From an uncultured Veillonellaceae bacterium (lineage in GTDB: Bacteria > Bacillota > Negativicutes > UBA1444): a stretch of 64,000 nt of DNA. The notes under the pieces were generated by a model. That model worked only from the letters and a program-made list of their open reading frames with translations, had not been told where the DNA came from and ran no database searches. Made by a program: the position numbers and the translations under genes. Below, in pieces: positions 29,591-44,351 of this stretch; positions within the stretch are counted from its first letter, which is position 1; each line of letters starts with the position of its first letter. Where the stretch lies: NCBI GenBank assembly GCA_964601085.1, contig CAZRLN010000002.1, positions 48,207-112,206 on the forward strand, written 5' to 3'.

Positions 29591-29613
29591 ACTGTTCATC
29601 TATAATGAACAGT
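29591..29613. promoter_or_regulatory. 9-bp perfect inverted repeat ACTGTTCAT-ctata-ATGAACAGT immediately upstream of the iclR SD; candidate IclR autoregulatory operator
   Basis: Read directly; no U-tail on the minus strand, so not a terminator for pduL. Confidence 0.4.
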
Positions 29614-29702
29614 GTTTTTATTTTTGGGCATAAAATAATTTTCGACTCTTCCTTGCAAAATCCTGCATGGTTTACAAAAAAAAGTCGAAGAATATTCACG
29701 GA

Positions 29703-30290
29703 TCAAACGATGCGGACTTTATCCCCCGTTTTTAGACAGGCCGCGTTTCCTTCGTCCGTATCGACGTGCATTTCCAGGGCATACTGATCGTTGACGCGAA
29801 CCAGAACCTGCCCCATGATCATGCCTCGCTCGCCCGAACATTCCACTTGAACAATGTCCTTGTCTTTGACGCCAAAACGTTCGGCATCGGCCGGGGTCAT
29901 GTGAATATGACGCAAAGCAGCGATAGCGCCCTGATCCAGAGTAATCGTTCCGTTCGGTCCGACCAGCACGACGCCCGGTGAACCGGCGACATTTCCGGAA
30001 TCCCGGATCGGTGGATTGATTCCCAACTTAACGGCATCCGTCAAGGATAGTTCGATTTGGGTATCTTTTCGGACTGGTCCCAGAATCCGGACACGAGTAA
30101 AGGCGCCTTTCGTAGTCATGATGTCTACCGTTTCTTCCGAAGCATATTGCCCGGGTTGTGACAAGTCTTTCTTCTTGGTCAGTTCGTAACCAGGTCCGAA
30201 CAGGGCATCCAGATGAGCTCGGCTCAAGTGTAGGTGTCTTCCGGATACTCCTACCGGAATACAGGCCTCGGTGATTTTTGGTTCAGTCAC
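29703..30290 (-). CDS. pduL: PduL/EutD-type phosphate acyltransferase (phosphate propanoyl/acetyl-transferase)
   Basis: Start GTG 30290 (V42 of the track ORF, SD GGAGGGA 9 nt upstream). IPVGVSGRHLHLS and two PduL repeats with the HxH motif. Confidence 0.8.
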   Translation of the reverse strand: MTEPKITEACIPVGVSGRHLHLSRAHLDALFGPGYELTKKKDLSQPGQYASEETVDIMTTKGAFTRVRILGPVRKDTQIELSLTDAVKLGINPPIRDSGNVAGSPGVVLVGPNGTITLDQGAIAALRHIHMTPADAERFGVKDKDIVQVECSGERGMIMGQVLVRVNDQYALEMHVDTDEGNAACLKTGDKVRIV

Positions 30291-30321
30291 GTTGTTGATC
30301 CCTCCATCTTTCTTTTGGCGA

Positions 30322-30669
30322 TTACTCGATGATTTCGGAAAAATACACCACGGATACCGTGTCGGACTCCAGGATCTTTTTATTATAGATCCCTTCCAAA
30401 AATGAAATGACATCCTTCACGTTTTCAATGTCCGGATTCTCGCCCCGCAGATCATCCTGCGTCAATTCCGAAATGCTCTTCACAAGCACGCGGTCAATCA
30501 TGGCCGTGTAAATACGCTTCTTTTGGGCGAACTTCTTGCCAACGGTAACCCAGACGATGTCGCCTTCGGCATATTTGTCCGTTTTGTCGCCCATACGAAT
30601 CGTACACGTTTTGCGCCGACAAATCAATTGATTGTGATACGTGGAAGAATAGAAATTCAACGCGCGCAA
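30322..30669 (-). CDS. ASCH-domain protein (YqfB-like small RNA/nucleotide-binding fold)
   Basis: 115 aa; TTG start with SD AGGAGG; GDKTDKYAEGDIVWV fits the ASCH pattern. Confidence 0.6.
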   Translation of the reverse strand: MRALNFYSSTYHNQLICRRKTCTIRMGDKTDKYAEGDIVWVTVGKKFAQKKRIYTAMIDRVLVKSISELTQDDLRGENPDIENVKDVISFLEGIYNKKILESDTVSVVYFSEIIE

Positions 30670-30701
30670 ACTAACACCCTCCTTACTTCACATGGGAGCT
30701 C

Positions 30702-31868
30702 TTATTTTGCCAGCCATTTTTCGGCCCGATCAACAAATTCAGCCAGCCGAGCTTCGGATTGGACGAGGGCGATTCGAACGTAACCTTCGCCGCAATCGCC
30801 AAAACCAATGCCGGGAACCACCGCTACCCCCGTATTCTTTAGTAGATCAGCGACAAAATCAAAGGAGGTTTGGCGAGTTGGCACGGGTGCCCAAATATAC
30901 ATGGAGGCTTTGGGTCGCTCCACTTTCCAGCCAAACCGGGCAAAACCGTCTACCAAGACATCCCTTCGCCGTTGATAACGCAGGGCAGTTTCGAGGATGC
31001 AATCGTCCGGACCGTTCAATGCGGCGATAGCCCCCTGTTGGATCGCATAAAAGATCCCATAATCAAAATTGGATTTCAAGCGCCCCAGCAAGGCGATGAC
31101 TTCCGCATTGCCCACGACGAAAGCTACCCGGCAGCCAGCCATGCTATAGGTTTTGGACAGGGAATGAAATTCAATGGCCACATCCTTGGCGCCCGGAATG
31201 GACAAAAAACTGTCAGGGCGATAACCGTCAAACACCAGTTCGCTATAGGCGAAATCATGAATCACCAAGAAATTATATTGTTTTGCCAAGGCAACAACTT
31301 TGACGAAGAAATCCCGGGGCGCGGTTGCAGCAAGCGGGTTGTTGGGATAATTCAGGATCATGATTTTGGCTCGACGCAAGATTGCGGGATCAATCGCGTC
31401 CAGGTCCGGCAGGTACGCATTTTCCGGTTTCAATGGCATCGTTACGATTTCCGCGCCGGCAACCAGCGGTCCGGCGAAGAAAATCGGATACCCGGGATCG
31501 GGAACCAGGACGACATCACCAGGATTGACCAAGCATAACCCGATGTGGGCCAGGCCGTCCTGGGATCCCATTAAGGAATGAATTTCAGTGGCGGGATCCA
31601 GACCGACGGAAAACTTTCTTTGGTACCAATTGGCGACTGCCTGAAGGAATTCCGGCGTTCCCTTCGACAAGGTGTAGCCATAACTGGCATCGTTGTCCAG
31701 GGCGTCCTTCATGGCGGCTACGATATGGGGCGCCGGAGCCAAATCGGGACTGCCCAAACTGAGGGTAATGACATCCTTTCCTTCCGCAATCGCCTGCTTT
31801 CGCATCGTATCCACTTGCGTGAATATGGCGGAAGAAAGTCCTTTAAGTCGTTCAGCCTGTTGAAACAT
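30702..31868 (-). CDS. class I/II PLP-dependent aminotransferase (aspartate/aromatic/branched-chain type)
   Basis: Start at M6 of the track ORF (SD GGGAGAG). SLSKTYSMAGCRVAF carries the PLP-lysine motif. Confidence 0.85.
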   Translation of the reverse strand: MFQQAERLKGLSSAIFTQVDTMRKQAIAEGKDVITLSLGSPDLAPAPHIVAAMKDALDNDASYGYTLSKGTPEFLQAVANWYQRKFSVGLDPATEIHSLMGSQDGLAHIGLCLVNPGDVVLVPDPGYPIFFAGPLVAGAEIVTMPLKPENAYLPDLDAIDPAILRRAKIMILNYPNNPLAATAPRDFFVKVVALAKQYNFLVIHDFAYSELVFDGYRPDSFLSIPGAKDVAIEFHSLSKTYSMAGCRVAFVVGNAEVIALLGRLKSNFDYGIFYAIQQGAIAALNGPDDCILETALRYQRRRDVLVDGFARFGWKVERPKASMYIWAPVPTRQTSFDFVADLLKNTGVAVVPGIGFGDCGEGYVRIALVQSEARLAEFVDRAEKWLAK

Positions 31869-31957
31869 CACATTCTCTCCCATCTGTTCATGCCCATTGG
31901 TAATGGATTTCTACATGTATTATTCTCGGCGCAAAGAGAAAATCCTTGTTTTCCGGA

Positions 31958-32006
31958 GAAGAAAAATACTATCCTGGCGATCATTGAAATGCTGCCAGGA
32001 TAGTAT
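31958..32006 (-). terminator. strong rho-independent terminator closing the ior...nfnAB operon
   Basis: Minus strand: ATACTATCCTGGC-(15 nt)-GCCAGGATAGTAT, a 13-bp stem, followed by TTTTTCTTC. Confidence 0.8.
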
Positions 32007-32030: not shown

Positions 32031-33434
32031 TTATTTTTTGGCGTTTTGTTTCTGTTGCACGTATTCGTGAATGGCTTCGGCCGCCTTTTTCCCGGCGCCC
32101 ATGGCCAAAATGACGGTGGCGGCGCCGGTAACGATATCGCCGCCGGCGAAAACCCCTTCTTTAGTTGTTTTGCCGTTTTCATCCGCGACGATATTGCCGT
32201 GCTTATTTGTTTCCATCCCCGGGGTGGTGTTCTGGATCAATGGATTGGGGCCCTGACCGATGGCGATGACCACGGTGTCCACATCCAGTACGAAGTTGGA
32301 TCCTGCTTTTTCTACCGGACGACGGCGACCCGACGCATCCGGTTCGCCCAGCTCCATCCGAACGCATTCCAGTCCCTTGACCCAGCCGGCTTCATCGCCA
32401 ATCACCTGAATCGGGTTGGTCAGCAATTGGAAATCGACGCCTTCTTCGTGAGCATGTTCCACTTCTTCGGCCCTTGCCGGCATTTCATCCTTGGAGCGGC
32501 GGTACACGATATAGACGTTTTCCGCACCAAGACGCAAGGCGGTACGCGCGGAGTCCATGGCGACATTGCCGCCGCCGACGACGGCGACATTTCGGCCAAC
32601 GCGAACCGGGGTGGCGGTTTCCGGGAACTTGTACGCTTTCATGAGATTCACGCGGGTCAAAAATTCATTGGCAGAATAAACGCCGTTGAGATTTTCGCCC
32701 AGCATTTTCATGAAGTGCGGCAATCCGGCGCCGGTGCCGATAAATACCGCGTCATATTTCTCTTCTTCCATCAGTTCGTCGACGGTGTAGGTTTTGCCAA
32801 TGACGGCATTGACTACCACTTCGACGCCGAGATATTTCAGGGTTTCGATTTCGCATTTTACGATTTCCTTCGGCAGCCGGAATTCGGGAATCCCGTACAT
32901 CAGAACGCCGCCGGGCGTATGCAATGCTTCAAACAGGGTTACCTGATACCCGAGGCGGACCAAATCGCCGGCCGCGGTCAGGCTGGCCGGTCCCCCACCG
33001 ATGACCGCCACTTTGCCGATTTTTTTCTCGGGCGGCAATTCCGGCATCGGGCAGCTTCCGCCCAACGAAAAGTCGGCGACAAACCGTTCCAGACGGCCAA
33101 TGGCGACCGGTTCCCCTTTTATTCCGCGGATACAGAGCTTTTCGCACTGATTTTCCTGGGGGCAGACCCGACCGCAGACCGCCGGCAGATTGTTATACTG
33201 GCGGATGATTTTATTGGCGGCGATATAATCGCCTTCTTTAACTTTACTGATGAATGCGGGAATATCAATTCCAACCGGGCAGCCATTACGGCAGGGCGAG
33301 TTTTTGCACTGCAGGCAGCGGGCGGCTTCGGCTTTGGCGGTTTCTTCATCATAACCCAAGGTAACTTCGTTAAAATTATGCCGGCGAACGTTGGCTTCCT
33401 GTTCCGGCATTTTATGTTTTACTTGTTGTGACAT
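32031..33434 (-). CDS. nfnB: NADH-dependent reduced ferredoxin:NADP+ oxidoreductase subunit B (GltD-like; 2x[4Fe-4S], FAD/NADPH)
   Basis: CLQCKNSPC...CPV...CGRVCPQENQCE; two Rossmann GxGxxG/A motifs. Start ATG 33434 with SD GGGGGA. Confidence 0.85.
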   Translation of the reverse strand: MSQQVKHKMPEQEANVRRHNFNEVTLGYDEETAKAEAARCLQCKNSPCRNGCPVGIDIPAFISKVKEGDYIAANKIIRQYNNLPAVCGRVCPQENQCEKLCIRGIKGEPVAIGRLERFVADFSLGGSCPMPELPPEKKIGKVAVIGGGPASLTAAGDLVRLGYQVTLFEALHTPGGVLMYGIPEFRLPKEIVKCEIETLKYLGVEVVVNAVIGKTYTVDELMEEEKYDAVFIGTGAGLPHFMKMLGENLNGVYSANEFLTRVNLMKAYKFPETATPVRVGRNVAVVGGGNVAMDSARTALRLGAENVYIVYRRSKDEMPARAEEVEHAHEEGVDFQLLTNPIQVIGDEAGWVKGLECVRMELGEPDASGRRRPVEKAGSNFVLDVDTVVIAIGQGPNPLIQNTTPGMETNKHGNIVADENGKTTKEGVFAGGDIVTGAATVILAMGAGKKAAEAIHEYVQQKQNAKK

Positions 33435-34249
33435 GATCCATCCCCCTTGCATTGCCGTTCCTGCGTTTGATACATGCGCGCCCGGGACATCAGTCCGTTG
33501 AAGTCGACGGCATGACCGTCAAACTCCGGTCCATCCACACAGGCGAATTTGGTTTCGCCGCCAACGCTGCAACGGCAACCGCCGCACATGCCGGTTCCGT
33601 CCACCATGATCGGGTTGAGGCTGACCAATGTGGGAATCTTATAGGGACGGGTTACCTCGGCAACGCCCCGCATCATGATCATTGGTCCGATCGCCATGAC
33701 CCGGTCGATTTTTTCGCCGGCGGCAATCATGTCTTTCAGGGGATCGACAACCAATCCCTTGCGTCCGGCGGAGCCGTCATCGGTGGTAATGTGCAGAACA
33801 TCGCTGACCGAACGCATTTCTTTCTCCATGATCAACAAATCCGCATTACGGGCGCCGATGATGGATACTACACGGTTGCCTGCTTCCTTATAAGCACGGG
33901 CGATGGGATAGACCGGCGCGACACCGATGCCGCCGCCAATGCAAACCACCGTGCCGAAATTTTCAATTTCAGTTGCTTTGCCGAGCGGTCCGGCAACGTC
34001 CAGAAGCGCATCACCGGCTTTTAGTGTGCCGAGTTGACGGGTAGTGTCGCCCACTTCTTGAAAAATCAAGTGAATGGAGCCCTGTTCGCGATTATAGTCG
34101 GCGATCGTCAAGGGAATCCGTTCGCCGTTTTCATCAATCCGCAGGATGATGAATTGTCCGGCCTGACATTTGCGAGCAACCATCGGCGCTTCCACGATAA
34201 AGGACTTCACGCCGGCGGACAGCTCTTCCGCACTGAGAATTTTGTACAA
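33419..34249 (-). CDS. nfnA: NfnA / sulfide dehydrogenase beta-like ferredoxin-NADP+ reductase subunit (PyrK fold, 2Fe-2S)
   Basis: Start TTG 34249 (L51 of the track ORF, SD AAGGAGG 7 nt upstream). C-terminus GMCGGCRCSVGGETKFACVDGP. Confidence 0.85.
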   Translation of the reverse strand: MYKILSAEELSAGVKSFIVEAPMVARKCQAGQFIILRIDENGERIPLTIADYNREQGSIHLIFQEVGDTTRQLGTLKAGDALLDVAGPLGKATEIENFGTVVCIGGGIGVAPVYPIARAYKEAGNRVVSIIGARNADLLIMEKEMRSVSDVLHITTDDGSAGRKGLVVDPLKDMIAAGEKIDRVMAIGPMIMMRGVAEVTRPYKIPTLVSLNPIMVDGTGMCGGCRCSVGGETKFACVDGPEFDGHAVDFNGLMSRARMYQTQERQCKGDGSCHNK

Positions 34250-34262
34250 TTGAATTCCTCCT

Positions 34263-35546
34263 TTATTTAACCAGCCGTAACCCGCGTGCGTTGGTTTCGG
34301 CTTTAACCTTGGCAATGTCGAGAGTGGTGAATTCCCCGTTGCGATAAAGAATGCGTCCATCGACCAAGGTATGGCTGACATCGGCCGAAGCCGCCGCATA
34401 CGTTAGGATGGAGGCAAGGTCGTGTTTGGGGTACCAATGGGGCGCCGTGATGTCGTAAATCGCCAAATCAGCTTTATAACCCGGCTCAATACGACCCAAA
34501 GCGTCACTTTGACCAATGGCGGCGGCGCCGCCTTGATGGGCAATTTGTAATACCTGGCTGGAAGGCAGTACCGTCGGATCCATACGGTCAAGCTTTTGCA
34601 GGAATGAGGCCATCCGGATCTCTTCCAGCATGTCCAGTTTATTGTTGCTGGTGGCGCCGTCCGTTCCCAGCGCGACGGTGACCCCGGCGTTCAGCATGGC
34701 GGCGACTGGTGCGGCGCCGCTGGCCAGTTTTAGATTACTGGAAGGATTGTGGACCACTCGGACTTTTTTTTCGGCGAGAATTCGGATATCATCTTCGGAA
34801 ACCCATACGCAGTGCGCTGCCAAAGTGCCGCAATCGAACACTCCCAGGCCGTCAAGCAAGGCAACCGGCGATTTTCCATAGATGTTTTTGCATTTTTCGA
34901 CTTCATCTTTGGTTTCCGACAAATGAACATGAATTTCCGCCCCGATCCGCCGGGCGATGCCAACGACTTTTTCCATGCAGCGCGGCGGACAGGTGTACGG
35001 GGCATGCGGCCCCAACATCACGGTAATCCGGCCGTCTGCGGCGCCATGGAAGTCATGGAACAATTGTTCATTCTCGGCGAATCGTTCCTCTTGACCTGGA
35101 CCGTCGACCGCAATGAGTCCGCGGGACAACGACGCCCGCATTCCAGTCTCGACGCAGGCCTTCGCCACTTGATCCATAAAAAAGTACATATCGGCAAAAG
35201 CGGTTGTGCCCGAGGCCAGCATTTCGGCAATGGCCAGCTGCGTTCCCCAATATACGTCTTCGGCGGTCAAGTTGGCTTCCGCCGGCCAGATTTTCTTTTG
35301 CAGCCAGTCCATCAGGGCCATGTCGTCGGCATAGCTGCGGAACAGAGTCATAGCCGCATGGGTATGGGCGTTCACCAGACCCGGGGTCGTCAGTTTATTC
35401 CCGCAATCGATTTTCTCTTCCGCTTCCCAATTCGGCGGAGCTTCGCCGCAGAACAGGATACGGCCGTTCTCGATGCCGATATCGCCGTCGATAATTTTGC
35501 CGGCTGGATCAAGGTAGCGCCCGGAGTGCAACAGCAATCTACTCAT
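34263..35546 (-). CDS. mtaD: 5'-methylthioadenosine / S-adenosylhomocysteine / 5'-deoxyadenosine deaminase (amidohydrolase MtaD/DadD family)
   Basis: 427 aa; metal ligands HTH...H...H...D; full-length match to MtaD-type deaminases. Confidence 0.85.
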   Translation of the reverse strand: MSRLLLHSGRYLDPAGKIIDGDIGIENGRILFCGEAPPNWEAEEKIDCGNKLTTPGLVNAHTHAAMTLFRSYADDMALMDWLQKKIWPAEANLTAEDVYWGTQLAIAEMLASGTTAFADMYFFMDQVAKACVETGMRASLSRGLIAVDGPGQEERFAENEQLFHDFHGAADGRITVMLGPHAPYTCPPRCMEKVVGIARRIGAEIHVHLSETKDEVEKCKNIYGKSPVALLDGLGVFDCGTLAAHCVWVSEDDIRILAEKKVRVVHNPSSNLKLASGAAPVAAMLNAGVTVALGTDGATSNNKLDMLEEIRMASFLQKLDRMDPTVLPSSQVLQIAHQGGAAAIGQSDALGRIEPGYKADLAIYDITAPHWYPKHDLASILTYAAASADVSHTLVDGRILYRNGEFTTLDIAKVKAETNARGLRLVK

Positions 35547-35550
35547 ACGA

Positions 35551-36207
35551 TCATCCTTTCCGTTTCAACTGACAATAGTTTTCCACGTAAAACCGGCGCA
35601 TTTGCAGAATATCTTCTTCGTTCAGGCTGCGGGCGCCGCCCAGTTGGCTGGCGATGGCATGGATCTGCGCTGCTTTTTCGACCAATTCGGCGACTAGCAA
35701 CGCTTCCGCCAGGGAGGGCCCGCAAGCAACCGCTCCATGATTCGCCAGTAATACCGCTGTTCTGTCGCCAAGCGCCAAGACGGCGTTTTGGGCCAGCTCG
35801 GGTGTTCCCGGCAACGCATATGGGGCGACAGCCACTTCGCCGCCCACGACTTGCACCATTTCCTCCAGACTGGGCGGAATCGCCTTTCCTGCGACAGCGC
35901 AGGCCGTTGCATAAATGCTGTGGGTGTGGACGACAGCCTGAACTTCAGGATGGGCTTGATAAATCGCCAAATGCAATGGCAATTCGGAGGAAGGGCGTTC
36001 GCCTTCCAGAATATTACCGGCCAAATCGACCACGACGAGGTCGGTGGTCTGCAACTCGGGATATGGACGGCCCGACGGCGTGATCACGACCTGATTGTCC
36101 CGGTCGCCGCGACAACTGATGTTTCCCCAGGTTCCGGCAACCAGGCCCCGCTCGATCATTTGACGCCCGGTATCGATGACGGCCTGTTTGATTTCCGACA
36201 AACTCTT
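35551..36207 (-). CDS. class II aldolase (FucA-like; DHAP-shunt Ald2 / 5-deoxyribulose-1-P aldolase candidate, not MtnB-like)
   Basis: GTWGNIS, catalytic PSSE (as in FucA PSSEW), HTHS; start at M14 of the track ORF (36207) or M1 (36246). Confidence 0.75.
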   Translation of the reverse strand, partial: KSLSEIKQAVIDTGRQMIERGLVAGTWGNISCRGDRDNQVVITPSGRPYPELQTTDLVVVDLAGNILEGERPSSELPLHLAIYQAHPEVQAVVHTHSIYATACAVAGKAIPPSLEEMVQVVGGEVAVAPYALPGTPELAQNAVLALGDRTAVLLANHGAVACGPSLAEALLVAELVEKAAQIHAIASQLGGARSLNEEDILQMRRFYVENYCQLKRKG

Positions 36208-36215
36208 CATTTGGG

Positions 36216-37457
36216 TTACGCCTGATGGAGATAGTCGGTTTGGCAACTGGTCAATGCGTCGATTTTTATGCCCATTGCCGCCAGCTTCAGGTGGGCGACC
36301 TGCAAATCCAGTTCGTGCGGCAAATTATGAACCTCATTGGTCATGGCGTCGTGATTCTTCAAGATATGCAACGCGGCCAGCGCTTGCATTGCAAAGGAAA
36401 GATCCATGATTTCCGTCGGATGGCCGTCGCCGGCCGCCAAATTCACCAGTCGGCCTTCCGCCAGCAAATAAATTTTTCGGCCATCGGCCATTTCGAATTC
36501 TTCGATATTCTTTCGCACAGTACGGGTCGATTTGGCCAAGGCCGCCAGATCGATCTTGTTGATTTCTACGTCGAAGTGACCGGCATTCGCCATGATGGCG
36601 CCCGGCTTCATCCGTTCCAGGTGCTCCCGTCGAATGACATCGTTGCAGCCGGTAACCGTGACAAAGATGTCTCCTGTTTCCGCCGCCGCCAGCATCGGCA
36701 GGACCTGATATCCGTCAAAAACCGCTTCCGCCGCCTTGATCGGATTGATTTCGGTTACGATGACATGAGCTCCCAGACCACGGGCCCGCATCGCCACGCC
36801 TTTGCCGCACCAACCGTAACCGGCGACGACGACGGTTTTGCCGGCGATCGACAGATTCGTCGTTCGCATGATGCCATCCCATACGGACTGGCCGGTACCG
36901 TAACGATTGTCGAACAAATGTTTGCAATCGGCATCGTTCACTGAAATCATGGGGAATTTCAGGCGTCCCTGGGCCGCCAGCGCCCGCAGACGCAATACGC
37001 CGGTGGTGGTTTCTTCCGATCCACCCATCACATTGACGGCCAAGTCGGCGCGTTCGCCATGCAGCAGGGATACCAGGTCGCCGCCGTCGTCGATGATAAT
37101 TTGCGGTTTGGTGTCCAGGGCATGATGCAAAAATTGATCATATTCCGCCGCCGTAGTATTGTACCAAGCGAACACCCCGACTCCGGATTCAGCCAGCGCC
37201 GCCGCCACATCATCCTGCGTGGACAAGGGATTGCTGCCGGTGACCACTACATTGGCCCCCGCATTTTTCAATACCATGCAGAGATAGGCTGTTTTGGCTT
37301 CCAAATGGACCGTCACAACCATGTTGATGCCGGCCAGCGGCTTGGTTTTCGTAAATTCGGCGTTCAGGGAATTCAGTACCGGCATATGCTCCATAACCCA
37401 GTGAATTTTGTCCCATCCCTGCGGCGCAAGTTTAGGATCCCGGATAATTGATTTCAT
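36216..37457 (-). CDS. ahcY: adenosylhomocysteinase, short archaeal/Firmicute type (possibly S-inosylhomocysteine hydrolase)
   Basis: 413 aa; NAD-binding GYGWCGKG; full-length AhcY. Confidence 0.92.
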   Translation of the reverse strand: MKSIIRDPKLAPQGWDKIHWVMEHMPVLNSLNAEFTKTKPLAGINMVVTVHLEAKTAYLCMVLKNAGANVVVTGSNPLSTQDDVAAALAESGVGVFAWYNTTAAEYDQFLHHALDTKPQIIIDDGGDLVSLLHGERADLAVNVMGGSEETTTGVLRLRALAAQGRLKFPMISVNDADCKHLFDNRYGTGQSVWDGIMRTTNLSIAGKTVVVAGYGWCGKGVAMRARGLGAHVIVTEINPIKAAEAVFDGYQVLPMLAAAETGDIFVTVTGCNDVIRREHLERMKPGAIMANAGHFDVEINKIDLAALAKSTRTVRKNIEEFEMADGRKIYLLAEGRLVNLAAGDGHPTEIMDLSFAMQALAALHILKNHDAMTNEVHNLPHELDLQVAHLKLAAMGIKIDALTSCQTDYLHQA

Positions 37458-38518
37458 TGTTTTTCCTCCTCAGAATGTTTCGTGGCCAACTTGCCAATGG
37501 ATAGATCATAAGGCGCTTTCAGAACGCCGGCTTCAGTAATGATGGCCGTCACCAAGTCCGCCGGAGTTACATCGAACGCCGGATTGAAAGCCTGGATTCC
37601 ATACGGCGCGGTGCGGACTCCGCCAAACTGGAAGATTTCATCGTGATGACGTTCCTCGATCGGGATGCCGGACCCATCCGGCAATGAAAAATCAAACGTT
37701 GACAACGGGGCCGCGACATAAAATGGAATATCATGCGCCTGAGCCAATACGGCCAAACCATAGGTGCCGATTTTGTTGGCGACATCGCCATTGCTGGCGA
37801 TGCGGTCGGCGCCGACGATCACCGCTTGCACCCGGCCGGTTTTCATGACCCAGGCGGCCATATTGTCGGTAATCAAGGTGACGGGAATTCCCTGCCGTGA
37901 CAGTTCAAATGCAGTCAGGCGGGCGCCCTGCAACAACGGACGAGTTTCATCGGCATAGACGCCGGTCACGTTTCCGTCGAGCCAGGCCTGCTGAATGACG
38001 CCGAGCGCGGTGCCGACAGCGACGGTCGCCAGAGCTCCGGCATTGCAATGCGTCAGGATGGTCGTCGGCCGACTGAACAACGTAGCTCCATAACGGGAAA
38101 TTTTTTCGTTCATGGCCCGGTCGTCGCGAGCGATGGTTTCCGCCTCTGCTTCCAGCCGACGGAGAAGTTCGGCATCCGACACTTGCTCCCCCGCTTCCCG
38201 GCAGACGTGCATCAGGCGGCGGAGCGCCCAGGACAGGTTCACCGCCGTGGGACGGGTTGCGTTTAACTCGGCGGCGATTCCGGGCAGTTCCGTCCGTAGG
38301 GATTTTCCGGATCTCACCAGTTCGATTGCACCCAGAACCAAGCCAAACGCAGCTGCCGCGCCAATGGCGGGAGCGCCCCTCACTTCCAGCCGCCGGATGG
38401 CTTCCGCCACCCTGCGGTAGTCATGGCAATCAATATAAGATTCCATTAATGGCAGGCGGGTTTGATCCAACAGAATCAAAACTCCGTTTTCCCAACGCAA
38501 AGATGCTGTCATGGCCAT
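37454..38518 (-). CDS. mtnA: S-methyl-5-thioribose-1-phosphate isomerase (eIF-2B-like)
   Basis: LRWENGVLILLDQTRLP and AIGAAAAFG; start at M19 of the track ORF, 1 nt after the mtnP stop. Confidence 0.88.
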   Translation of the reverse strand: MAMTASLRWENGVLILLDQTRLPLMESYIDCHDYRRVAEAIRRLEVRGAPAIGAAAAFGLVLGAIELVRSGKSLRTELPGIAAELNATRPTAVNLSWALRRLMHVCREAGEQVSDAELLRRLEAEAETIARDDRAMNEKISRYGATLFSRPTTILTHCNAGALATVAVGTALGVIQQAWLDGNVTGVYADETRPLLQGARLTAFELSRQGIPVTLITDNMAAWVMKTGRVQAVIVGADRIASNGDVANKIGTYGLAVLAQAHDIPFYVAAPLSTFDFSLPDGSGIPIEERHHDEIFQFGGVRTAPYGIQAFNPAFDVTPADLVTAIITEAGVLKAPYDLSIGKLATKHSEEEKQ

Positions 38519-38519
38519 A

Positions 38520-39323
38520 TCAGAGTTTGAACCCGCCGAATTCACGCAACGCATGCGGGCAGGAACATTCATCCGTCCGGGTCGCGATAAGAATGGTCTG
38601 TTTCAGCAAAGCCCGAATGTTGGCGGCATTTTGTTTCATGGTGTCAACCACTTCGGCATGGGTCAACGGCGTTGAACTGATGCCGGCTGCAAAATTGGTA
38701 ACCATCGAAATCGTTGCATAACAAATTTCCGCTTCGCGCGCCAGCCCGGCTTCCGGAACACCGGTCATTCCCACCAGATCACCGCCCAGCATTGCATAGG
38801 CTTTGATTTCCGCCGCCGTTTCAAACCGGGGGCCCTCGGTGCAGACATAACAGCCGTTTCCATGCAGGGGCAATTCCAGAGTCGCGGCGGCGGCGGCAAT
38901 CGCTTGCCGCAGGGTCGGACAATAAGGGGAAGTCATGTCCACATGCACGACACCCCGATCGCTGCCCTCGTAAAAAGTAGGAATCCGGAGTTTGGTAAAA
39001 TCGAGAAACTGATCCGGCAATACAATATCGCCCGGTTTCATGGTCGCATTTAACGACCCGACAGCCGTAGTCGCGAGGATTTGCTGCACGCCCAGTTTTT
39101 TTAGCGCCCAAATATTCGCCCGATAATTGATCAAATGCGGTGGAATGGAATGATGGCGGCCATGTCGCGGAATAAAGGCAACCGGTCGGCCTTCCAGCAG
39201 TCCGGTCTGGCAGGATACTTCGCCATAGGGTGTATCGACAACAACGGTGGAAACCTGGTCCAGCACGGCGGGATCATAAACTCCCGTACCGCCAATGACG
39301 GCAAGCGACGGCTTGATGCTCAA
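38520..39323 (-). CDS. mtnP: S-methyl-5'-thioadenosine (or methylthioinosine) phosphorylase
   Basis: 267 aa; PNP family II motifs (AVIGGTGVY; HGRHHS). Confidence 0.9.
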   Translation of the reverse strand: MSIKPSLAVIGGTGVYDPAVLDQVSTVVVDTPYGEVSCQTGLLEGRPVAFIPRHGRHHSIPPHLINYRANIWALKKLGVQQILATTAVGSLNATMKPGDIVLPDQFLDFTKLRIPTFYEGSDRGVVHVDMTSPYCPTLRQAIAAAAATLELPLHGNGCYVCTEGPRFETAAEIKAYAMLGGDLVGMTGVPEAGLAREAEICYATISMVTNFAAGISSTPLTHAEVVDTMKQNAANIRALLKQTILIATRTDECSCPHALREFGGFKL

Positions 39324-40000
39324 CTTTGCTCCTCCTTCTGCTCCGCGAAAACGATCTTCAGCAAATCAGACATGGTTTCCAGAATATAATCGGGATTGAC
39401 TGCGATCAGTTCTTCCCAGGGAACGTGGGTCCAACGCACGGCGGCTGTTTTCACGCCGGCGCCCTTCCCGCTCAGCAAATCATGGGCACTGTCGCCGATC
39501 ATGATGCATTCTCCCGCGTCGAGACGGGTATGTTGCAGGGCCGTTAGCACCGGTTCGGGCTCGGGCTTGTGACGAACGGTTTCATCGACGCCGATGACCG
39601 TCGAGAAATACTGTTCGATGTCGAACAGCTTCAAGCCCCGCCGGGCCATGACCGAAGTTTTGGATGTGACGATCGCCAGTTTTACACCGGCGTCATGCAA
39701 AGCGCGGATGGTTTCCGGCACGCTCTCAAAAATGCCGGCCAACTGATCGTGATGAATATGATTGAAGGCACGATAGGTCGCGATCACGGCATCCTCTTCG
39801 CCAGGCGCCAATACTTCCATGGCGGCCCGCAGAGGTTTTCCCATGTAGGGCTGGATGTCCTTCAAAGTGATTGAACGCTGATAATGGGTTTGGAAAGCGT
39901 GCTGAAACGACTTGACGATGAGAGGTGTGGTGTCCAGCAATGTGCCGTCAAGATCAAAAAAAACTCCCCGAAAAAAAGGTAAACTCACGAAATGTTCCAT
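39320..40000 (-). CDS. HAD-superfamily hydrolase (phosphatase, subfamily IA)
   Basis: Start at M25 of the track ORF; motif I FFDLDGTL and motif IV GDSAHD. Confidence 0.7.
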   Translation of the reverse strand: MEHFVSLPFFRGVFFDLDGTLLDTTPLIVKSFQHAFQTHYQRSITLKDIQPYMGKPLRAAMEVLAPGEEDAVIATYRAFNHIHHDQLAGIFESVPETIRALHDAGVKLAIVTSKTSVMARRGLKLFDIEQYFSTVIGVDETVRHKPEPEPVLTALQHTRLDAGECIMIGDSAHDLLSGKGAGVKTAAVRWTHVPWEELIAVNPDYILETMSDLLKIVFAEQKEEQS

Positions 40001-40563
40001 CCTTTGTTGAAAGCTTCTTGATTGGCGGTTACAAATGCCGCCGGGCTTTTGGCCGCGATAGCATCCAACCATAACTCGCGGGTCATGGGCAAACGTTTGG
40101 CCAGCATTCCCAGCAATACGATATTGACTGCTTTGGGATTGCCGGACCGGGCGGCAATGGCGGGGGCATCGACCCTCACAGTTTGGACGCCGGCCCTGTC
40201 CAACCGGTCAAAAACATCGGCAGGGTATTTGGCGGCGCCGATGATGACGGGCATGGGCGAAATCATCTGCTCGTTCACGATGACGATGCCGTTTGGTTTT
40301 AAAAATTCTATCCACCGCAGCGCTTCCAATTGCTCGAAGGCTACAATGAGATCCGCCTCGCCTTTTTCAATCAGCGGCGATATCACCTGATCGCCGATCC
40401 GAACATAGGTCACGACGCTGCCGCCGCGTTGGGCCATACCATGGACTTCCGACTGCTTGACAGACAGGCCGCTTTTTTCGGCAACTTCGCCAATCACTTT
40501 GCCTGCGAACAGGGTCCCCTGTCCGCCAACGCCGACAATCAGAACATTAATGGTGTCCGTCAT
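39985..40563 (-). CDS. iorB: indolepyruvate:ferredoxin oxidoreductase beta subunit
   Basis: 192 aa; VLIVGVGGQGTLFAGKV N-terminus. Confidence 0.8.
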   Translation of the reverse strand: MTDTINVLIVGVGGQGTLFAGKVIGEVAEKSGLSVKQSEVHGMAQRGGSVVTYVRIGDQVISPLIEKGEADLIVAFEQLEALRWIEFLKPNGIVIVNEQMISPMPVIIGAAKYPADVFDRLDRAGVQTVRVDAPAIAARSGNPKAVNIVLLGMLAKRLPMTRELWLDAIAAKSPAAFVTANQEAFNKGWNIS

Positions 40564-42305
40564 TTTTCCCCACCTGCCTTCCGGATCGCCTGGAATTTAC
40601 AAACCTGTTGGCAGACGCCACAACCGGTGCACATTTTGCTTTCAATGCGCACCTTGCCGTCCTTCAGTTCAATCGCCGGACAGCCGATTTTCAGACAAGA
40701 GCGGCAAAGTTTGCAGGCGTCGGAGTCGATCCAATACGATTCGCGAACGGGATTGCGCAGAATCAACATGCAGGGGCGACGGGCAATAATGACTGCCGGC
40801 TCACGGGCGACCAGCGCTTCCCGTAGCGCCGAAGCGGTTTCTTCCAGGTTGTATGCGTCAACAATCCACAGTTTTTCGACGCCGCAGGCGCGCACAATTT
40901 CTTCTATACGGACTTGCGGAGCCGGTTTGCCGGAAATGTCGAAGCCGGTGGCGGGGTTTTGCTGATGACCGGTCATGCCGGTAATGCTGTTGTCCAGAAT
41001 AACGACCGTAACCAGGCCTTTGTTGTAGACCACATCGATCAGGCCGGTGATGCCCGAATGCAAAAATGTCGAATCGCCGATGGTGGCGACGATTTTCTTA
41101 TCCGGCAGGACTTTGGAAAACCCCAGGGCATTTGGAATGCTGGCGCCCATGTCGATGCAGGTGTCGCCCGCGCTGAGCGGCGGCATGTATCCCAATGAAT
41201 AACAACCGATGTCGCTGGTGATGATATCCGCCATTTTTGCGATGACGGAAAACACTCCCCGATGTGGGCACCCGGCGCATAATACCGGCGGCCGGCCCGG
41301 CACTTCCGAACAATCCACGGTTAACAAAGGCAACCGGATACCCAGCAATTTTTCGCGGATTATCGCCACGCTTAATTCGCCGATCCGGGGAAAAATCTCC
41401 TTGCCCTTTACCGGCAAGCCCAAGGCTTTGATTTGCTCTTCGAGGAATGGTTCCCCTTCTTCAATCACCAAAACCTCGCCGTGATTGGCGATGAAATCCC
41501 GGATCAATCCTTCCGGCAATGGCCAGGTCAAGCTGAGTTTCAGGTACGTGGCCCGGTCGCCGAGCGCTTCCCGGGCATACAGATAGCCGGGACCGCTGGT
41601 AATGACCGCAAATTCCTTGCCGTCGCCTTCCACGCGATTGCCGGGGAAACGATCCGCATACTTGGACAGACGCAGTACCCGGTCTTCAATGATCGGGCGT
41701 TTTGGACGTTGATTCGCCGGTACCACGAAATATTTCGCGGAGTCTTTTTTGTAGGGTTTAACCGGGATTTCCACTCGTTCCTGTAATTCCACGAGACTTT
41801 TGGAATGTGAAATCCGTGTGGTGGTCCGCAACATAACTGGAGTATCAAACAATTCGCTGATTTCCAGGGCGGCTGCGACAAAATCTTTGGCTTCCTGACT
41901 ATCGGTAGGTTCCAACAGGGCAATCTTCATAAATTTGGCGTAATAGCGGTTGTCCTGTTCATCCTGGGAACTGTGCATGCCGGGATCGTCGGCGGAAACC
42001 AGAACAAATCCGCCGCTCACTCCATTGTAGCCCGCCGTGAACAAGGGATCGGCTGCAACATTCACACCAACGTGTTTCATCGCGGCAAGGACGCGGGCGC
42101 CGGCGATCGAAGCGCCCTGCGCCACTTCCACGGCAACTTTTTCATTGGTGGACCATTGCGCATTAATTTCCGGATATCGGGCGATGTTTTCCAAAATTTC
42201 CGTGCTCGGTGTTCCGGGATAGGCGCAGGCAACCCGAACGCCTGCCTCATAGGCTCCCCGGGCGATGGCCTCATTGCCGGTCAACAATTTTTTGATAACG
42301 TCCAC
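40560..42305 (-). CDS. iorA: indolepyruvate:ferredoxin oxidoreductase alpha subunit
   Basis: KKLLTGNEAIARGAYEAG, a TPP motif, and C-terminal 2x[4Fe-4S]. Start approximated at GTG (V43 of the track ORF); uncertain by a few codons. Confidence 0.85.
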   Translation of the reverse strand: MDVIKKLLTGNEAIARGAYEAGVRVACAYPGTPSTEILENIARYPEINAQWSTNEKVAVEVAQGASIAGARVLAAMKHVGVNVAADPLFTAGYNGVSGGFVLVSADDPGMHSSQDEQDNRYYAKFMKIALLEPTDSQEAKDFVAAALEISELFDTPVMLRTTTRISHSKSLVELQERVEIPVKPYKKDSAKYFVVPANQRPKRPIIEDRVLRLSKYADRFPGNRVEGDGKEFAVITSGPGYLYAREALGDRATYLKLSLTWPLPEGLIRDFIANHGEVLVIEEGEPFLEEQIKALGLPVKGKEIFPRIGELSVAIIREKLLGIRLPLLTVDCSEVPGRPPVLCAGCPHRGVFSVIAKMADIITSDIGCYSLGYMPPLSAGDTCIDMGASIPNALGFSKVLPDKKIVATIGDSTFLHSGITGLIDVVYNKGLVTVVILDNSITGMTGHQQNPATGFDISGKPAPQVRIEEIVRACGVEKLWIVDAYNLEETASALREALVAREPAVIIARRPCMLILRNPVRESYWIDSDACKLCRSCLKIGCPAIELKDGKVRIESKMCTGCGVCQQVCKFQAIRKAGGEK

Positions 42306-42360: not shown

Positions 42361-43134
42361 TTAAAAAATCCTGCTAATCGACTCGTTCCATTGTTGCAGA
42401 TTTTTAAGACGTGAATAATCCGTAAGATCAAAATGAATCGGCGTCAAGGAAATTTGATTAGCTCGGATGGCAGCTACGTCAGTATCGTCGGAATTCGGCG
42501 TTTCCATGGGTGTTCCCGCCATCCAGTAATAGATCCGTCCACGCGGATCAACCCGTTTTTCGAAAGCATTTTCATATTCTATGCTTCCCAGCCGGGTGAT
42601 CGATACGCCACGGATTTCTGTCGTCGGAACGGGTGGTACGTTAATGTTGATCAGGCTAAAAGCAGGAAATGTCTTGTCGATGATTTGCTGCACAACACTA
42701 CGACAAAAGGCGGCCGCCGGAGCGAAATCCGGCTCACCATCTGTGGCCAGGGAAACAGCGATGGCCGGAATCCCGTGCATCGCCCCTTCCACGGCCGCAC
42801 TGACCGTGCCGGAATACAAGACATCGGTTGCCAGATTCGGACCGTGATTGATTCCGGAGATCACCAAATCAGGCTTCTCCGTCATTAACGTGTCCAGGGC
42901 AATTTTGACGCTGTCGGCCGGAGTGCCGCCAATGCGCCAACCGGTGATGCGGGAATCCTCAAATGATTGTTTATTGACCCAGATGGGATGGTAGACTGTG
43001 ATGGAATGACCGGTGGCGCTTTGTTGCTGGCTTGGCGCGGCTACTATAATTTCAGCGATTGATTTTAGTTGCTCCCAAAGCGCCTGGATTCCCGGCGCCC
43101 GGATCCCGTCGTCGTTTGTTAGTAATATGTGCAA
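42361..43134 (-). CDS. surE: 5'/3'-nucleotidase SurE
   Basis: MHILLTNDDGIRAPGI N-terminus. Confidence 0.9.
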   Translation of the reverse strand: MHILLTNDDGIRAPGIQALWEQLKSIAEIIVAAPSQQQSATGHSITVYHPIWVNKQSFEDSRITGWRIGGTPADSVKIALDTLMTEKPDLVISGINHGPNLATDVLYSGTVSAAVEGAMHGIPAIAVSLATDGEPDFAPAAAFCRSVVQQIIDKTFPAFSLININVPPVPTTEIRGVSITRLGSIEYENAFEKRVDPRGRIYYWMAGTPMETPNSDDTDVAAIRANQISLTPIHFDLTDYSRLKNLQQWNESISRIF

Positions 43135-43164
43135 TTTTTGTCCCTGCCTTTTTGCTTGTAGTAT

Positions 43165-43923
43165 TTAAAGCTGTCCCATCAGTTTATGGGTCTGCGGAAT
43201 CACCCGTACGTTTTGGAGGCTCGCCAAGGCCAGCTCCTGCCACCGCAAGACTTGCTCCGGAACTACCGGCGTGACGCCGTGGACCGGTGTGACGGGCTGG
43301 AGAATCAGGGGAATTGCGGGATTAATATCACAAATCAAAGCAATGGCTCTTTCTAGTTCGCTCGGAGATGTCCGCCCGCTCAGCACGATTTTTACAAAGA
43401 CTTCGCGTTGGCAGGCCACTTTTAAAAATTCAGCGTGTTCTTGCCAATACTCTTGTTGTTCCGGCAATTCGCTGGGGAGTTTAAAATCCATGGAAACAAT
43501 ATCGATATGTTGAATCACTTGCGCCAATATCGTCGGCAAAGTTCCGTTCGTTTCCAGATATAGCCTTACACCTTTGTCCCGCAACGGCGATAATGCAACA
43601 ACCGCCTGGGGCTGCAGCAAGGGTTCACCGCCAGTCAGACTGATGGAATGATGCGGGGTGCGGCAGAGATTGGCGACGGCAGCGAACAGTTCGGAGGCTG
43701 CGACTGGATTCGTAATGGATCCGAACATCCTGCTTCCCGCCTCCGTCTCGACGCGTGCCGCCGCCGGAACGGCGAAAGAGTCCCGGGTATCGCAATACCG
43801 GCAGAAAAGATTGCAGCCGGCCAAGCGAACGAACACTTGCCGGCAGCCTACAAATAGCCCTTCTCCCTGAATCGATGAAAAGATTTCTACTAAGTTCATG
43901 GGTGAGACAACATTTTCCTGCAT
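43165..43923 (-). CDS. queE: 7-carboxy-7-deazaguanine synthase QueE (radical SAM)
   Basis: CNLFCRYCDT cluster; start at M4 of the track ORF (SD GGAGG). Confidence 0.85.
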   Translation of the reverse strand: MQENVVSPMNLVEIFSSIQGEGLFVGCRQVFVRLAGCNLFCRYCDTRDSFAVPAAARVETEAGSRMFGSITNPVAASELFAAVANLCRTPHHSISLTGGEPLLQPQAVVALSPLRDKGVRLYLETNGTLPTILAQVIQHIDIVSMDFKLPSELPEQQEYWQEHAEFLKVACQREVFVKIVLSGRTSPSELERAIALICDINPAIPLILQPVTPVHGVTPVVPEQVLRWQELALASLQNVRVIPQTHKLMGQL

Positions 43924-43928
43924 GGGAA

Positions 43929-44306
43929 TCACGCCTCCGGAATGTAAGAAGCACAGGAACGAGGGGATTCCCAGACTCTTACGGCAAAGACCCTTACCCG
44001 GTCCGAGAAGGCCGGGTTGTTGGCAAGAGTATCATACACATATTTAGCGATATGTTCGGCAGTTGGCGGCAGCGATGAAAACACCGGCGTCTCGTTCAGG
44101 TAATAATGATCCAATGTTGCCAGGACCTCCGCCACATGGGATTTCAGAACCTTGAAATCCATTAACAGGCCCGAGGAATCCAGCGTCGATCCCCGTACGG
44201 ACACTTCCACCTTCCAGTTGTGGCCGTGCAGACGGCAGCATTTTCCTTCGTAATCGGGCAAACGATGTGCCGCTTCAAACTCTTCAATAATGGTCAGTTC
44301 AAACAT
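43929..44306 (-). CDS. queD: 6-carboxy-5,6,7,8-tetrahydropterin synthase QueD
   Basis: CxxxHGH motif (CCRLHGHNW); start at M16 of the track ORF (SD GGAGA). Confidence 0.85.
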   Translation of the reverse strand: MFELTIIEEFEAAHRLPDYEGKCCRLHGHNWKVEVSVRGSTLDSSGLLMDFKVLKSHVAEVLATLDHYYLNETPVFSSLPPTAEHIAKYVYDTLANNPAFSDRVRVFAVRVWESPRSCASYIPEA

Positions 44307-44351
44307 CTGATTTCTCCATTCGCAATGAAATGCAAAAAGTGAGCCATGCAC

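Follow-up and report, generated by a model that had tools for sequence, protein, structure and literature searches.

The closest described systems for the salvage genes fall into three groups. In the DHAP shunt of Rhodospirillum rubrum and ExPEC E. coli, MtnP or MtnK is combined with MtnA and the aldolase Ald2, and a phosphorylase variant of the gene cluster has already been described (PMC6079011; PMC10986504); DrdK-DrdI-DrdA of Bacillus thuringiensis is a comparable set. The S-inosyl-L-homocysteine (SIH) route pairs DadD with an SIH hydrolase in Methanocaldococcus jannaschii, and TM0936 with TmSAHH in Thermotoga maritima; among such hydrolases, the motif HxExK marks SIH-preferring and HxTxE/Q SAH-preferring enzymes (Koeppl et al. 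2024, PMC10978960). Finally, Pseudomonas aeruginosa has an MTA deaminase and a methylthioinosine phosphorylase (PA3004), the latter solved with hypoxanthine (3OZB; PMC5738077).

We examined a window of 64,000 nucleotides from an uncultured Veillonellaceae bacterium, in which ten tightly packed minus-strand open reading frames at 32031–42305 were confirmed by reading the sequence, and profile searches placed all ten in the families originally assigned to them. The same ten genes were called independently on identical metagenome contigs. Together with their flanking features, they are:

42361–44351, minus strand: queD, queE (radical SAM) and surE, co-directional and upstream of iorA (Pfam PTPS, Radical_SAM, SurE)
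40560–42305, minus strand: iorA, indolepyruvate:ferredoxin oxidoreductase (IOR) alpha subunit (TIGR03336, 701 bits, cut-off 651)
39985–40563, minus strand: iorB, IOR beta subunit (NF005325, 257 bits, cut-off 230)
39320–40000, minus strand: HAD-IA phosphatase, PpaX/Gph-like (PpaX-like NF009804, 238 bits, cut-off 218)
38520–39323, minus strand: mtnP-family phosphorylase (MTAP model TIGR01694, 310 bits, cut-off 275)
37454–38518, minus strand: mtnA, 5-methylthioribose-1-P/5-deoxyribose-1-P isomerase (TIGR00512, 431 bits, cut-off 279)
36216–37457, minus strand: ahcY, archaeal-type hydrolase (NF004005, 668 bits)
35551–36210, minus strand: class II (FucA-like) aldolase (Pfam Aldolase_II; below every equivalog cut-off)
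34263–35546, minus strand: mtaD/dadD-like amidohydrolase (best NF004701, 487 bits, cut-off 609; below all NCBIfam equivalog cut-offs)
33419–34249, minus strand: nfnA, small subunit of NADH-dependent ferredoxin:NADP oxidoreductase (NF004862, 417 bits)
32031–33434, minus strand: nfnB, large subunit (TIGR01316, 601 bits)
about 31961–32006, minus strand: intrinsic terminator, a 13-bp hairpin stem followed by U5

Five of these genes, mtnP-mtnA-ahcY-aldolase-mtaD (34263–39323), form a portable cassette that occurs in many anaerobes. We favor, at a probability of roughly 0.6, a reading in which the cassette disposes of all three SAM adenosyl by-products via deaminated (hypoxanthine) nucleosides, with iorAB and nfnAB belonging to a shared neighborhood. 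MtaD would convert SAH, MTA and 5'-deoxyadenosine to S-inosylhomocysteine, methylthioinosine and 5'-deoxyinosine, of which the first would yield inosine and homocysteine through the AhcY homologue, and the other two hypoxanthine and 5-methylthioribose-1-P or 5-deoxyribose-1-P through the MtnP homologue. MtnA would then isomerize these sugar phosphates to ribulose-1-phosphates, from which the FucA-like aldolase would release DHAP and either 2-(methylthio)acetaldehyde or acetaldehyde. We infer all of these steps and substrate specificities from motif rules of a few characterized enzymes.

The genes mtaD, ahcY and mtnP point to a single logic, a deaminase followed by an SIH-type hydrolase and a hypoxanthine-type phosphorylase. 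Solved MTA/SAH deaminases are homologues of MtaD, whose PDB matches are 4F0R (MTA/SAH deaminase, 281 bits), 4GBD and TM0936 (1P1M); its predicted substrates are SAH, MTA and 5'-deoxyadenosine. Residues 51–55 of AhcY read HLEAK, an HxExK motif found in 51/51 cluster-linked homologues. The best PDB matches of AhcY are 7R37, 7R3A ('S-inosyl-L-homocysteine hydrolase') and 3X2E, and PfuSAHH, an 'S-inosyl-L-homocysteine hydrolase' and TmSAHH stand nearest to it among solved proteins (470–522 bits, against ~315 bits for human SAHH). We predict from these features that AhcY prefers S-inosyl-L-homocysteine, and 'SAH hydrolase' is probably the wrong substrate label. MtnP passes not only the MTAP model but also the MTI phosphorylase model NF006599 (281 bits, cut-off 223), and its purine-pocket motif is MVTNFAAG, compared with VVNPAAG in P. 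aeruginosa 3OZB, VTNLAAG in PNP 1C3X and VTDYD in MTAPs, such that Asn and Ala stand where four solved MTAPs have Asp-x-Asp. Asn occupies this position in every cluster-linked MtnP read, and TN[FYM][AG] is present in all but one. The predicted substrates are 5'-methylthioinosine and 5'-deoxyinosine (6-oxopurine type), and the original prediction of an MTA phosphorylase probably named the wrong substrate. Taken with the homology of MtaD and the HxExK motif of AhcY, the Asn pocket thus suggests that MTA and SAH are probably not what MtnP and AhcY, respectively, act on.

Like the DHAP shunt, the locus has clustered genes for a phosphorylase, an isomerase and a FucA-like aldolase, and its predicted products, DHAP and an aldehyde, resemble those of the shunt and of 5-deoxyribose salvage; unlike the shunt, it has a putative deaminase for MTA, SAH and 5'-deoxyadenosine and an AhcY homologue built into the operon, as well as a 6-oxopurine pocket in the phosphorylase. 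The aldolase (invariant residues E76, H95, H97 and H158) shares its catalytic Glu76 and His triad with DrdA, and 5-deoxyribulose-1-P and 5-methylthioribulose-1-P are its predicted substrates. Its suggested placement against Ald2/DrdA, MtnB and FucA came out only in part as anticipated: it is not an MtnB, but at 30% identity to E. coli Ald2 and 38% to DrdA it groups with neither characterized enzyme and forms its own clade. With the SIH route, the locus shares a deaminase homologue and an archaeal-type HxExK AhcY, whereas here both genes lie in one operon with DHAP-shunt genes, in hosts that we take to be mesophilic (Negativicutes, Peptococcales and other Firmicutes). Deamination before phosphorolysis would be common to this locus and P. 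aeruginosa, as is Asn-x-Ala-Ala-Gly to both phosphorylases, although archaeal MTAPs (251 bits) score higher overall against the window MtnP than 3OZB does (198 bits), and we know of no DHAP-shunt operon that contains the P. aeruginosa genes. The cassette is most likely a deaminase-first DHAP shunt combined with the S-inosylhomocysteine pathway of Methanocaldococcus and Thermotoga.

Junction spacing across the ten genes runs from −16 to +13 nt. The iorB start overlaps the iorA stop (ATGA), the HAD gene overlaps the iorB stop (GTGA), and the TTG start of mtnP overlaps the HAD stop (TTGA); the following junctions are +1, an ATGA overlap, +5 and +4, after which nfnA, preceded by an AGGAGG ribosome-binding site, has a TTG start 13 nt past the mtaD stop, and nfnB overlaps nfnA by 16 nt. 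The string of overlapping or closely spaced genes, and with it their proposed translational coupling, is therefore borne out by the coordinates and junctions, and related genomes keep the tight spacing. The single strong terminator proposed 3' of nfnB was likewise recovered (−25.1 kcal/mol, z = −5.96, with 0/200 shuffles folding as well), and a check for internal promoters and terminators gave only weak matches at chance level (10 found vs 13.6 expected, and 27 vs 23.6, respectively). Both iorAB and nfnAB encode genuine enzymes, and their co-transcription and translational coupling with the cassette are probable. Less secure is a unit of exactly ten genes starting at iorA, whose start codon is GTG at 42305 or, by start-codon alignment, more likely ATC at 42296. 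The surE-iorA gap is only ~55 nt, with no terminator hairpin (z = −0.26) and no conserved or recognizable promoter found in it; the transcript may therefore begin further upstream, at queD or back to psd near 46955, and queD-queE-surE, whose order is conserved in Negativicutes, may share it.

To place the locus in context, we compared 80 species loci, a biased sample because it comprises the nearest relatives of this aldolase. The genes mtnP, mtnA, the aldolase and mtaD occur together in 50/80, with ahcY in 40 of those 50. In seven loci, from Peptococcales, Clostridia and Syntrophaceticus, the cassette is inserted between smc-ftsY and ylxM-ffh, a signal recognition particle (SRP) housekeeping cluster, and in this setting in other Firmicutes it comes without any redox genes. 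The Negativicutes lineage has a co-directional string of queD-queE-surE, optional iorAB, the HAD gene, the cassette and optional nfnAB, then aat-ASCH-pduL; in many of these loci the HAD gene is immediately upstream of mtnP, and in some mtaD is directly followed by aat or pduL. Downstream neighbors are aat, ASCH, pduL, IclR, a ferredoxin gene and vorABC. Whereas iorAB flanks the cassette in only 7/80 loci, nfnAB follows mtaD in 26/35 Negativicutes-type loci and 0/14 others, with a gap of 14–75 nt in all 26 (Sporomusaceae, Pelosinus, Anaerospora, Phascolarctobacterium). The nfnA and nfnB products are close homologues of the T. maritima and Pyrococcus furiosus NfnAB (nfnA: 5JCA_S 338 bits, 4YLF_A 282 bits; nfnB: 4YLF_B 593 bits, 5JCA_L 542 bits). 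In three genomes lacking nfnAB (L019, L029 and L030), the Sporomusa-type Nfn (StnABC), a functional analogue of NfnAB, occupies the same slot at a stnA gap of ~200 nt, so stnABC may have its own promoter; 8–9 Negativicutes-type loci have no transhydrogenase there.

A canonical methionine salvage pathway, with the aldolase-like protein as an MtnB dehydratase and the HAD protein as an MtnC/MtnX-type phosphatase, would fit the class II aldolase fold, the HAD gene adjoining mtnP and weak matches to MtnB models. These matches, however, reach 83–87 bits where the cut-offs are 137 and 226 (TIGR03328, 87 bits, cut-off 137) and cover the N-terminal half only, while the best solved relatives are FucA (147 bits) and DrdA (133 bits), ahead of MtnB-like 2IRP (72 bits), and the aldolase-type catalytic residues are present. 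Since PpaX and Gph, and not enolase-phosphatase, are what the HAD protein most resembles, and a Pfam survey of ~57 window ORFs found no mtnK, mtnN, RubisCO-like or ARD proteins, agreeing with the predicted absence of mtnK, mtnN, mtnW and mtnD, we regard this pathway as very improbable. As had been proposed, the aldolase belongs with FucA-like enzymes rather than MtnB, which makes the cluster a disposal route of the DHAP-shunt type instead of the aerobic methionine salvage cycle. Its original form, an adenine-type anaerobic shunt (MtnP on MTA and 5'-deoxyadenosine, AhcY on SAH, MtaD accessory) hard-wired to IOR and NfnAB and tying disposal to the ferredoxin/NADPH economy, draws on the one co-directional, overlapping string with its one terminator, the MTAP model passed by MtnP, the nfnAB linkage and StnABC replacement in Negativicutes, and a searchable literature in which we found neither Nfn tied to MTA metabolism nor nfnAB directly behind a SAM by-product cassette. 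Against it stand the PNP/MTIP-type pocket, the SIH-type AhcY motif, the scarcity of iorAB, the redox-free cassettes of the SRP cluster and the Negativicutes loci with aat or pduL directly after mtaD; moreover, no shunt step needs ferredoxin. We consider it unlikely, and the hard-wiring itself is not upheld by the distribution of iorAB and nfnAB.

A somewhat better, though still doubtful, prospect is partial coupling, in which the hypoxanthine route is accompanied by an Nfn or Stn selectively kept beside the cassette in Negativicutes; its NADPH might serve, for example, to reduce the aldehyde products, or for homocysteine-to-methionine conversion and SAM resynthesis. The short mtaD-nfnA gap across several Negativicutes families and the non-orthologous replacement at the same position argue for it, as does the near mutual exclusion of Stn and Nfn reported by Kremp et al. 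(PMC7483475). On the other hand, the slot also adjoins aat-pduL and here the vor operon, ferredoxin-linked amino-acid oxidation genes that are equal or better partners; the cluster has no aldehyde reductase, some loci leave the slot without a transhydrogenase, stnABC may be independently expressed, and conservation could be merely inherited synteny. The presence of iorAB and nfnAB is a lineage-specific neighborhood, best explained by sharing it with amino-acid-oxidation and ferredoxin genes (aat, pduL, vor) and not by a role in salvage, and we infer that the flanking redox genes and the disposal cassette lack functional coupling. Within the Negativicutes, StnABC in the nfnAB slot could nonetheless mean that there is selection for a transhydrogenase beside the cassette.

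The ten genes at 32031-42305 were assigned one by one, and NCBIfam puts every ORF in a named family, which upholds the gene identities given in the original prediction. The features of this stretch are as follows, with the genes in operon order:

32031-42305, (-): ten ORFs, from ORF calls and NCBIfam family matches
(-): iorA, TIGR03336, 701 bits (NCBIfam cut-off 651)
(-): iorB, NF005325, 257 bits (NCBIfam cut-off 230)
39320-40000, (-): HAD-IA phosphatase, PpaX/Gph-like, top match PpaX, 238 bits (cut-off 218)
(-): mtnP, TIGR01694, 310 bits (cut-off 275)
(-): mtnA, TIGR00512, 431 bits
(-): ahcY, NF004005, 668 bits
(-): class II aldolase, FucA-like, under all NCBIfam equivalog cut-offs
(-): mtaD-like amidohydrolase, under all NCBIfam equivalog cut-offs
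(-): nfnA, NF004862, 417 bits
(-): nfnB, TIGR01316, 601 bits
~31961-32006, (-): intrinsic terminator 3' of nfnB, a 13-bp hairpin with a U5 tail, from folding

Both IorAB subunits exceed their NCBIfam equivalog cut-offs, and the same ten genes were called on identical metagenome contigs. As read from the sequence, the junctions from iorA to nfnB consist, in order, of ATGA, GTGA and TTGA overlaps, a spacing of +1, an ATGA overlap, spacings of +5, +4 and +13, and an overlap of 16 nt. The hairpin 3' of nfnB folds with an energy of -25.1 kcal/mol (z = -5.96), and 0 of 200 shuffled sequences folded equally well; the tight packing and single strong 3' terminator claimed for the string are thus confirmed. 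Two ORFs antisense to it, at 32046-33431 (+; 461 aa, opposite nfnB) and 34749-36083 (+; 444 aa, opposite the aldolase and mtaD), are taken to be shadow ORFs of the coding strand.

The proposal that these ten genes form one transcript is plausible for the interior of the string, and its 5' limit may lie further upstream. A scan for promoters and terminators inside the operon returned weak matches only, at a frequency not above that in shuffled sequence, whereas no boundary signal sets iorA apart from the genes before it:

upstream of iorA, (-): queD, queE (a radical SAM enzyme) and surE, tightly packed on the same strand

The surE-iorA spacer of ~55 nt folds no better than chance (z = -0.26), and an alignment of seven related genomes revealed no conserved promoter in it. 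Since the spacer lacks both kinds of signal and packed, co-directional genes lie upstream, the transcript may be longer than ten genes. Further upstream of queD, psd, pssA and a family-2 glycosyltransferase gene (GT2) follow on the same strand. A 12-bp hairpin is found at the GT2/queD junction (44333-44361, (-)), weaker than the terminator near psd; the latter, a 13-bp hairpin upstream of psd at 47026-46995 (site spanning 46995-47068, (-)), is the nearest clear upstream terminator and is preceded by a promoter-like TGGACA-18-TATAAT site. We regard these two elements as candidate limits of a longer transcription unit. Rfam searches of 31.5-47.5 kb, at the gathering threshold and at E <= 1, returned no SAM, SAH or preQ1 riboswitch; an FMN riboswitch over its gathering score (88 bits) is located at 63717-63845 (-), upstream of ribD, ribE and ribBA. 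At iorA itself, the ribosome-binding site directly abuts the proposed GTG start (42294-42305, (-)), and the codon aligned to the ATG start of two related loci (L009 and L013) is ATC in the window and ATT in three others (L011, L028 and L048), with good spacing to the ribosome-binding site. Given this combination, translation of iorA may, in several lineages, begin at a non-canonical AUC/AUU codon.

To place the string among its relatives, we searched a set holding a single genome for each GTDB species, using an aldolase-homolog alignment as the query, kept the best 80 loci and mapped the window proteins onto them by tblastn. The nearest genomes come from uncultured Negativicutes; they are MAGs whose deposited names are 'Veillonellaceae' and 'Sporomusaceae'. 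The aldolase sequence recurs unchanged on several metagenome contigs. Among those of the best 80 loci with enough upstream sequence, mtnA was found in 58/64, mtnP in 55/64 and ahcY in 46/64; mtaD was present in 57 of the 67 with downstream sequence. mtnP, mtnA, the aldolase gene and mtaD occur together in 50 of the best 80 loci, 40 of which also hold ahcY, and the gene order and close spacing of this cassette are kept across relatives. Its carriers include Anaerospora, Pelosinus and Phascolarctobacterium among the Negativicutes, and, beyond them, Desulfotomaculum, Desulforamulus, further Peptococcales, Syntrophaceticus, Clostridia MAGs and Armatimonadota, with a reduced form in Acetothermia. 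Some 20 Negativicutes loci conserve a PpaX/Gph-like HAD gene immediately upstream of mtnP, and the two genes frequently overlap.

The redox genes at either end of the string are genuine. nfnA and nfnB are adjacent genes for a PyrK-like small and a GltD-like large subunit, nearest to characterized Nfn (nfnB, 593 bits against T. maritima NfnB; nfnA, 338 bits against P. furiosus NfnI), and they are predicted from sequence to encode an electron-bifurcating NADH-dependent Fd:NADP oxidoreductase; the identity of iorAB is equally genuine. The functional fusion of these genes with by-product disposal, which had been the core of the original prediction, was not borne out by the comparison. Only 7 of the best 80 loci carry iorAB in the interval from surE to HAD/mtnP. 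Of the 35 Negativicutes-type loci with enough sequence, 26 have nfnAB behind mtaD at a distance of 14-75 nt and 8-9 lack it there; of 14 other loci, none has nfnAB behind mtaD. Moreover, in seven non-Negativicutes loci mtnP-mtnA-aldolase-mtaD, without ahcY, is flanked by smc-ftsY on one side and ylxM-ffh on the other, within the classical and conserved SRP housekeeping cluster:

L036, L040, L043, L045, L046, L061 and L084: insertions of the cassette in the SRP cluster

With the cassette able to reside among housekeeping genes in this way, a functional tie between it and its neighbors is clearly not required.

Beyond the terminator, the window continues on the same strand with a further set of genes:

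25270-31883, (-): class I/II aminotransferase, ASCH protein, PduL-type phosphotransacylase, IclR regulator, ferredoxin gene, vor-type 2-oxoacid:ferredoxin oxidoreductase alpha/beta/gamma and PHP-domain protein

This region looks like a ferredoxin-linked amino-acid oxidation neighborhood. IOR, Nfn, PduL, VOR and the aminotransferase fit together coherently as genes that would serve the oxidation of amino acids and the handling of ferredoxin, and the salvage cassette seems to be embedded among them. A closer tie to transhydrogenase is kept open by three loci (L019, L029 at 12125-17717, and L030), in which the slot between mtaD and aat-pduL holds genes for a NuoE-like protein of 134 aa, a NuoF-like protein of 592 aa and a GltD/NuoG fusion of 1126 aa; the arrangement corresponds exactly to that of StnABC, the Sporomusa-type Nfn (PMC7483475), and takes the position that nfnAB has elsewhere in Negativicutes. 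Such replacement of Nfn by Stn could reflect a real transhydrogenase link to the locus, with either the cassette or aat-pduL as the partner. Published transcript maps of Sporomusa sphaeroides KIAC give nfnAB its own start and 3' end, but the gene upstream of nfnAB in that strain, of only ~750 nt, is given there without annotation, so that the maps are uninformative on the mtaD-nfnA junction. We consider it improbable that Negativicutes selectively keep and co-express a transhydrogenase (mostly NfnAB, in some StnABC) beside the cassette and so tie by-product disposal to the NADPH/ferredoxin balance, and functional coupling of the cassette to ferredoxin/NADPH metabolism is, in our assessment, a minority hypothesis.

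The finding is real, and its main interest lies in the cassette itself rather than in a fusion with redox genes. A DHAP-shunt cluster has been defined by a FucA-like class II aldolase alongside an MTR-1-P isomerase and either an MTA-type phosphorylase or an MTR kinase (PMC6079011), and the window cluster holds the gene set of the DHAP shunt/5-deoxyribose salvage. In an alignment with DrdA (6BTD), Glu76, His95, His97 and His158 of the window aldolase match the catalytic Glu76 and the metal ligands, and all four residues are invariant in the aldolase alignment. FucA and DrdA are far stronger matches to the enzyme than MtnB-type proteins are, so the earlier assignment as FucA-like and 'not MtnB' was right. 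Matches to the MtnB models of canonical methionine salvage stayed under their cut-offs (TIGR03328, 87 bits vs 137; NF006672, 83 bits vs 226) and were confined to the N-terminal half of the protein; on these scores, an MtnB role within that pathway was rejected.

For comparison with characterized enzymes, E. coli Ald2 was located by stepping along the ATCC 25922 chromosome; blastn of mtnA-ahcY-aldolase against E. coli genomes gave no match. The E. coli reference genes are:

L088, 45137-45778: ald2 of E. coli ATCC 25922, experimentally validated
L089, 3042-3689: fucA of E. coli K-12

In a small neighbor-joining tree of the window clade and four references (E. coli Ald2, E. coli FucA, DrdA and S. 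pneumoniae FucA), the window aldolase and the cluster-linked proteins form a clade of their own, apart from all four, to which the window aldolase is only 30-40% identical. A grouping with Ald2 or DrdA failed, these references being nearer to FucAs than to each other: E. coli Ald2 shares 58% identity with E. coli FucA and only 31% with B. thuringiensis DrdA, which in turn shares 53% with S. pneumoniae FucA. As Ald2 and DrdA are each nearer a FucA, the 5-deoxyribulose-1-P aldolases characterized so far look polyphyletic among FucA-family proteins, and recruitment to this function seems to have taken place several times. The predicted activity of the window enzyme (5-deoxyribulose-1-P/methylthioribulose-1-P to DHAP and an aldehyde) is assigned from gene context, not from clade membership.

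The signatures that distinguish the cassette lie in AhcY, MtnP and MtaD. SAH hydrolase homologs with an HxExK fingerprint prefer SIH, and those with HxTxE/Q prefer SAH (Koeppl et al. 2024, PMC10978960). Window AhcY carries HxExK as HLEAK at residues 51-55, and 51/51 cluster-linked homologs likewise have the motif; the closest solved structures to window AhcY are the Pyrococcus enzyme, an entry titled 'S-inosyl-L-homocysteine hydrolase' and the Thermotoga enzyme. The purine pocket of window MtnP reads VTNFAAG; that of four solved archaeal MTA phosphorylases reads VTDYD. The human MTAP pocket carries TD220YD222. Going by established work on Asn243 of human PNP, the Asn at this position selects 6-oxopurines. 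Window MtnP combines an MTAP-like fold with a PNP-like 6-oxopurine pocket in which Asn replaces the Asp of MTAPs. By fragment search, window MtnP shares its Asn-x-Ala-Ala-Gly motif with P. aeruginosa 3OZB (VVNPAAG), which we take to be the methylthioinosine phosphorylase described by Guan et al. (2011), and with the 6-oxopurine PNP 1C3X (VTNLAAG). Hypoxanthine is present in the P. aeruginosa 3OZB structure (PMC5738077). The pocket Asn occurs in all cluster-linked MtnPs, with TN[FYM][AG] in all but one, and window MtnP passes the MTI phosphorylase model NF006599 (281 bits, cut-off 223). mtaD, two genes downstream of ahcY in the same operon, encodes a DadD/MtaD-type deaminase homolog with strong homology to the solved MTA/SAH deaminases 4F0R, 4GBD and TM0936, yet it scores 375 bits against DadD model NF005557, whose cut-off is 522.

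Together, AhcY HxExK, the MtnP Asn pocket and MtaD homology suggest a deaminase-first, hypoxanthine-type route for SAM by-products, in which we infer all substrate specificities from sequence. SAH, MTA and 5'-deoxyadenosine would be deaminated first. SIH would then be hydrolyzed to inosine and homocysteine, and MTI and 5'-deoxyinosine would undergo phosphorolysis to hypoxanthine and ribose-1-phosphates, after which MtnA and then the aldolase would complete the DHAP shunt. The HAD gene notwithstanding, this proposed route needs a phosphatase step at no point. Further SAM-/sulfur- and phosphate-related genes of the window, at 7450-8844 (+), 16654-17910 (+) and 49439-55163, include a MiaB-type radical SAM methylthiotransferase, a PF06838 methionine gamma-lyase family protein and a ppx-ppk-CHAD/CYTH polyphosphate cluster.

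Earlier publications describe the DHAP shunt and the phosphorylase-isomerase-aldolase cluster (PMC6079011, PMC10986504), as well as the SIH route (PMC10978960) and the MTI route. Within an incomplete coverage of the literature, we found no report of this operon and none joining NfnAB with MTA metabolism. The deaminase-first signatures, as far as sequence can tell, are coherent, and the cassette that bears them is widespread in anaerobic Firmicutes. The Nfn/Stn link poses a testable side question on redox-gene organization in anaerobes. If the proposed route is true, the SIH and MTI routes would not be curiosities of methanogens, Thermotoga and Pseudomonas; both would be a single operon-encoded pathway of many anaerobic Firmicutes, including human-gut Phascolarctobacterium. 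The annotations 'MTA phosphorylase' and 'adenosylhomocysteinase' would then name the wrong substrates for the cassette genes, the Asn pocket and HxExK would serve as cheap re-annotation markers for thousands of genomes, and hypoxanthine, not adenine, would be the salvaged base for metabolic models to predict.
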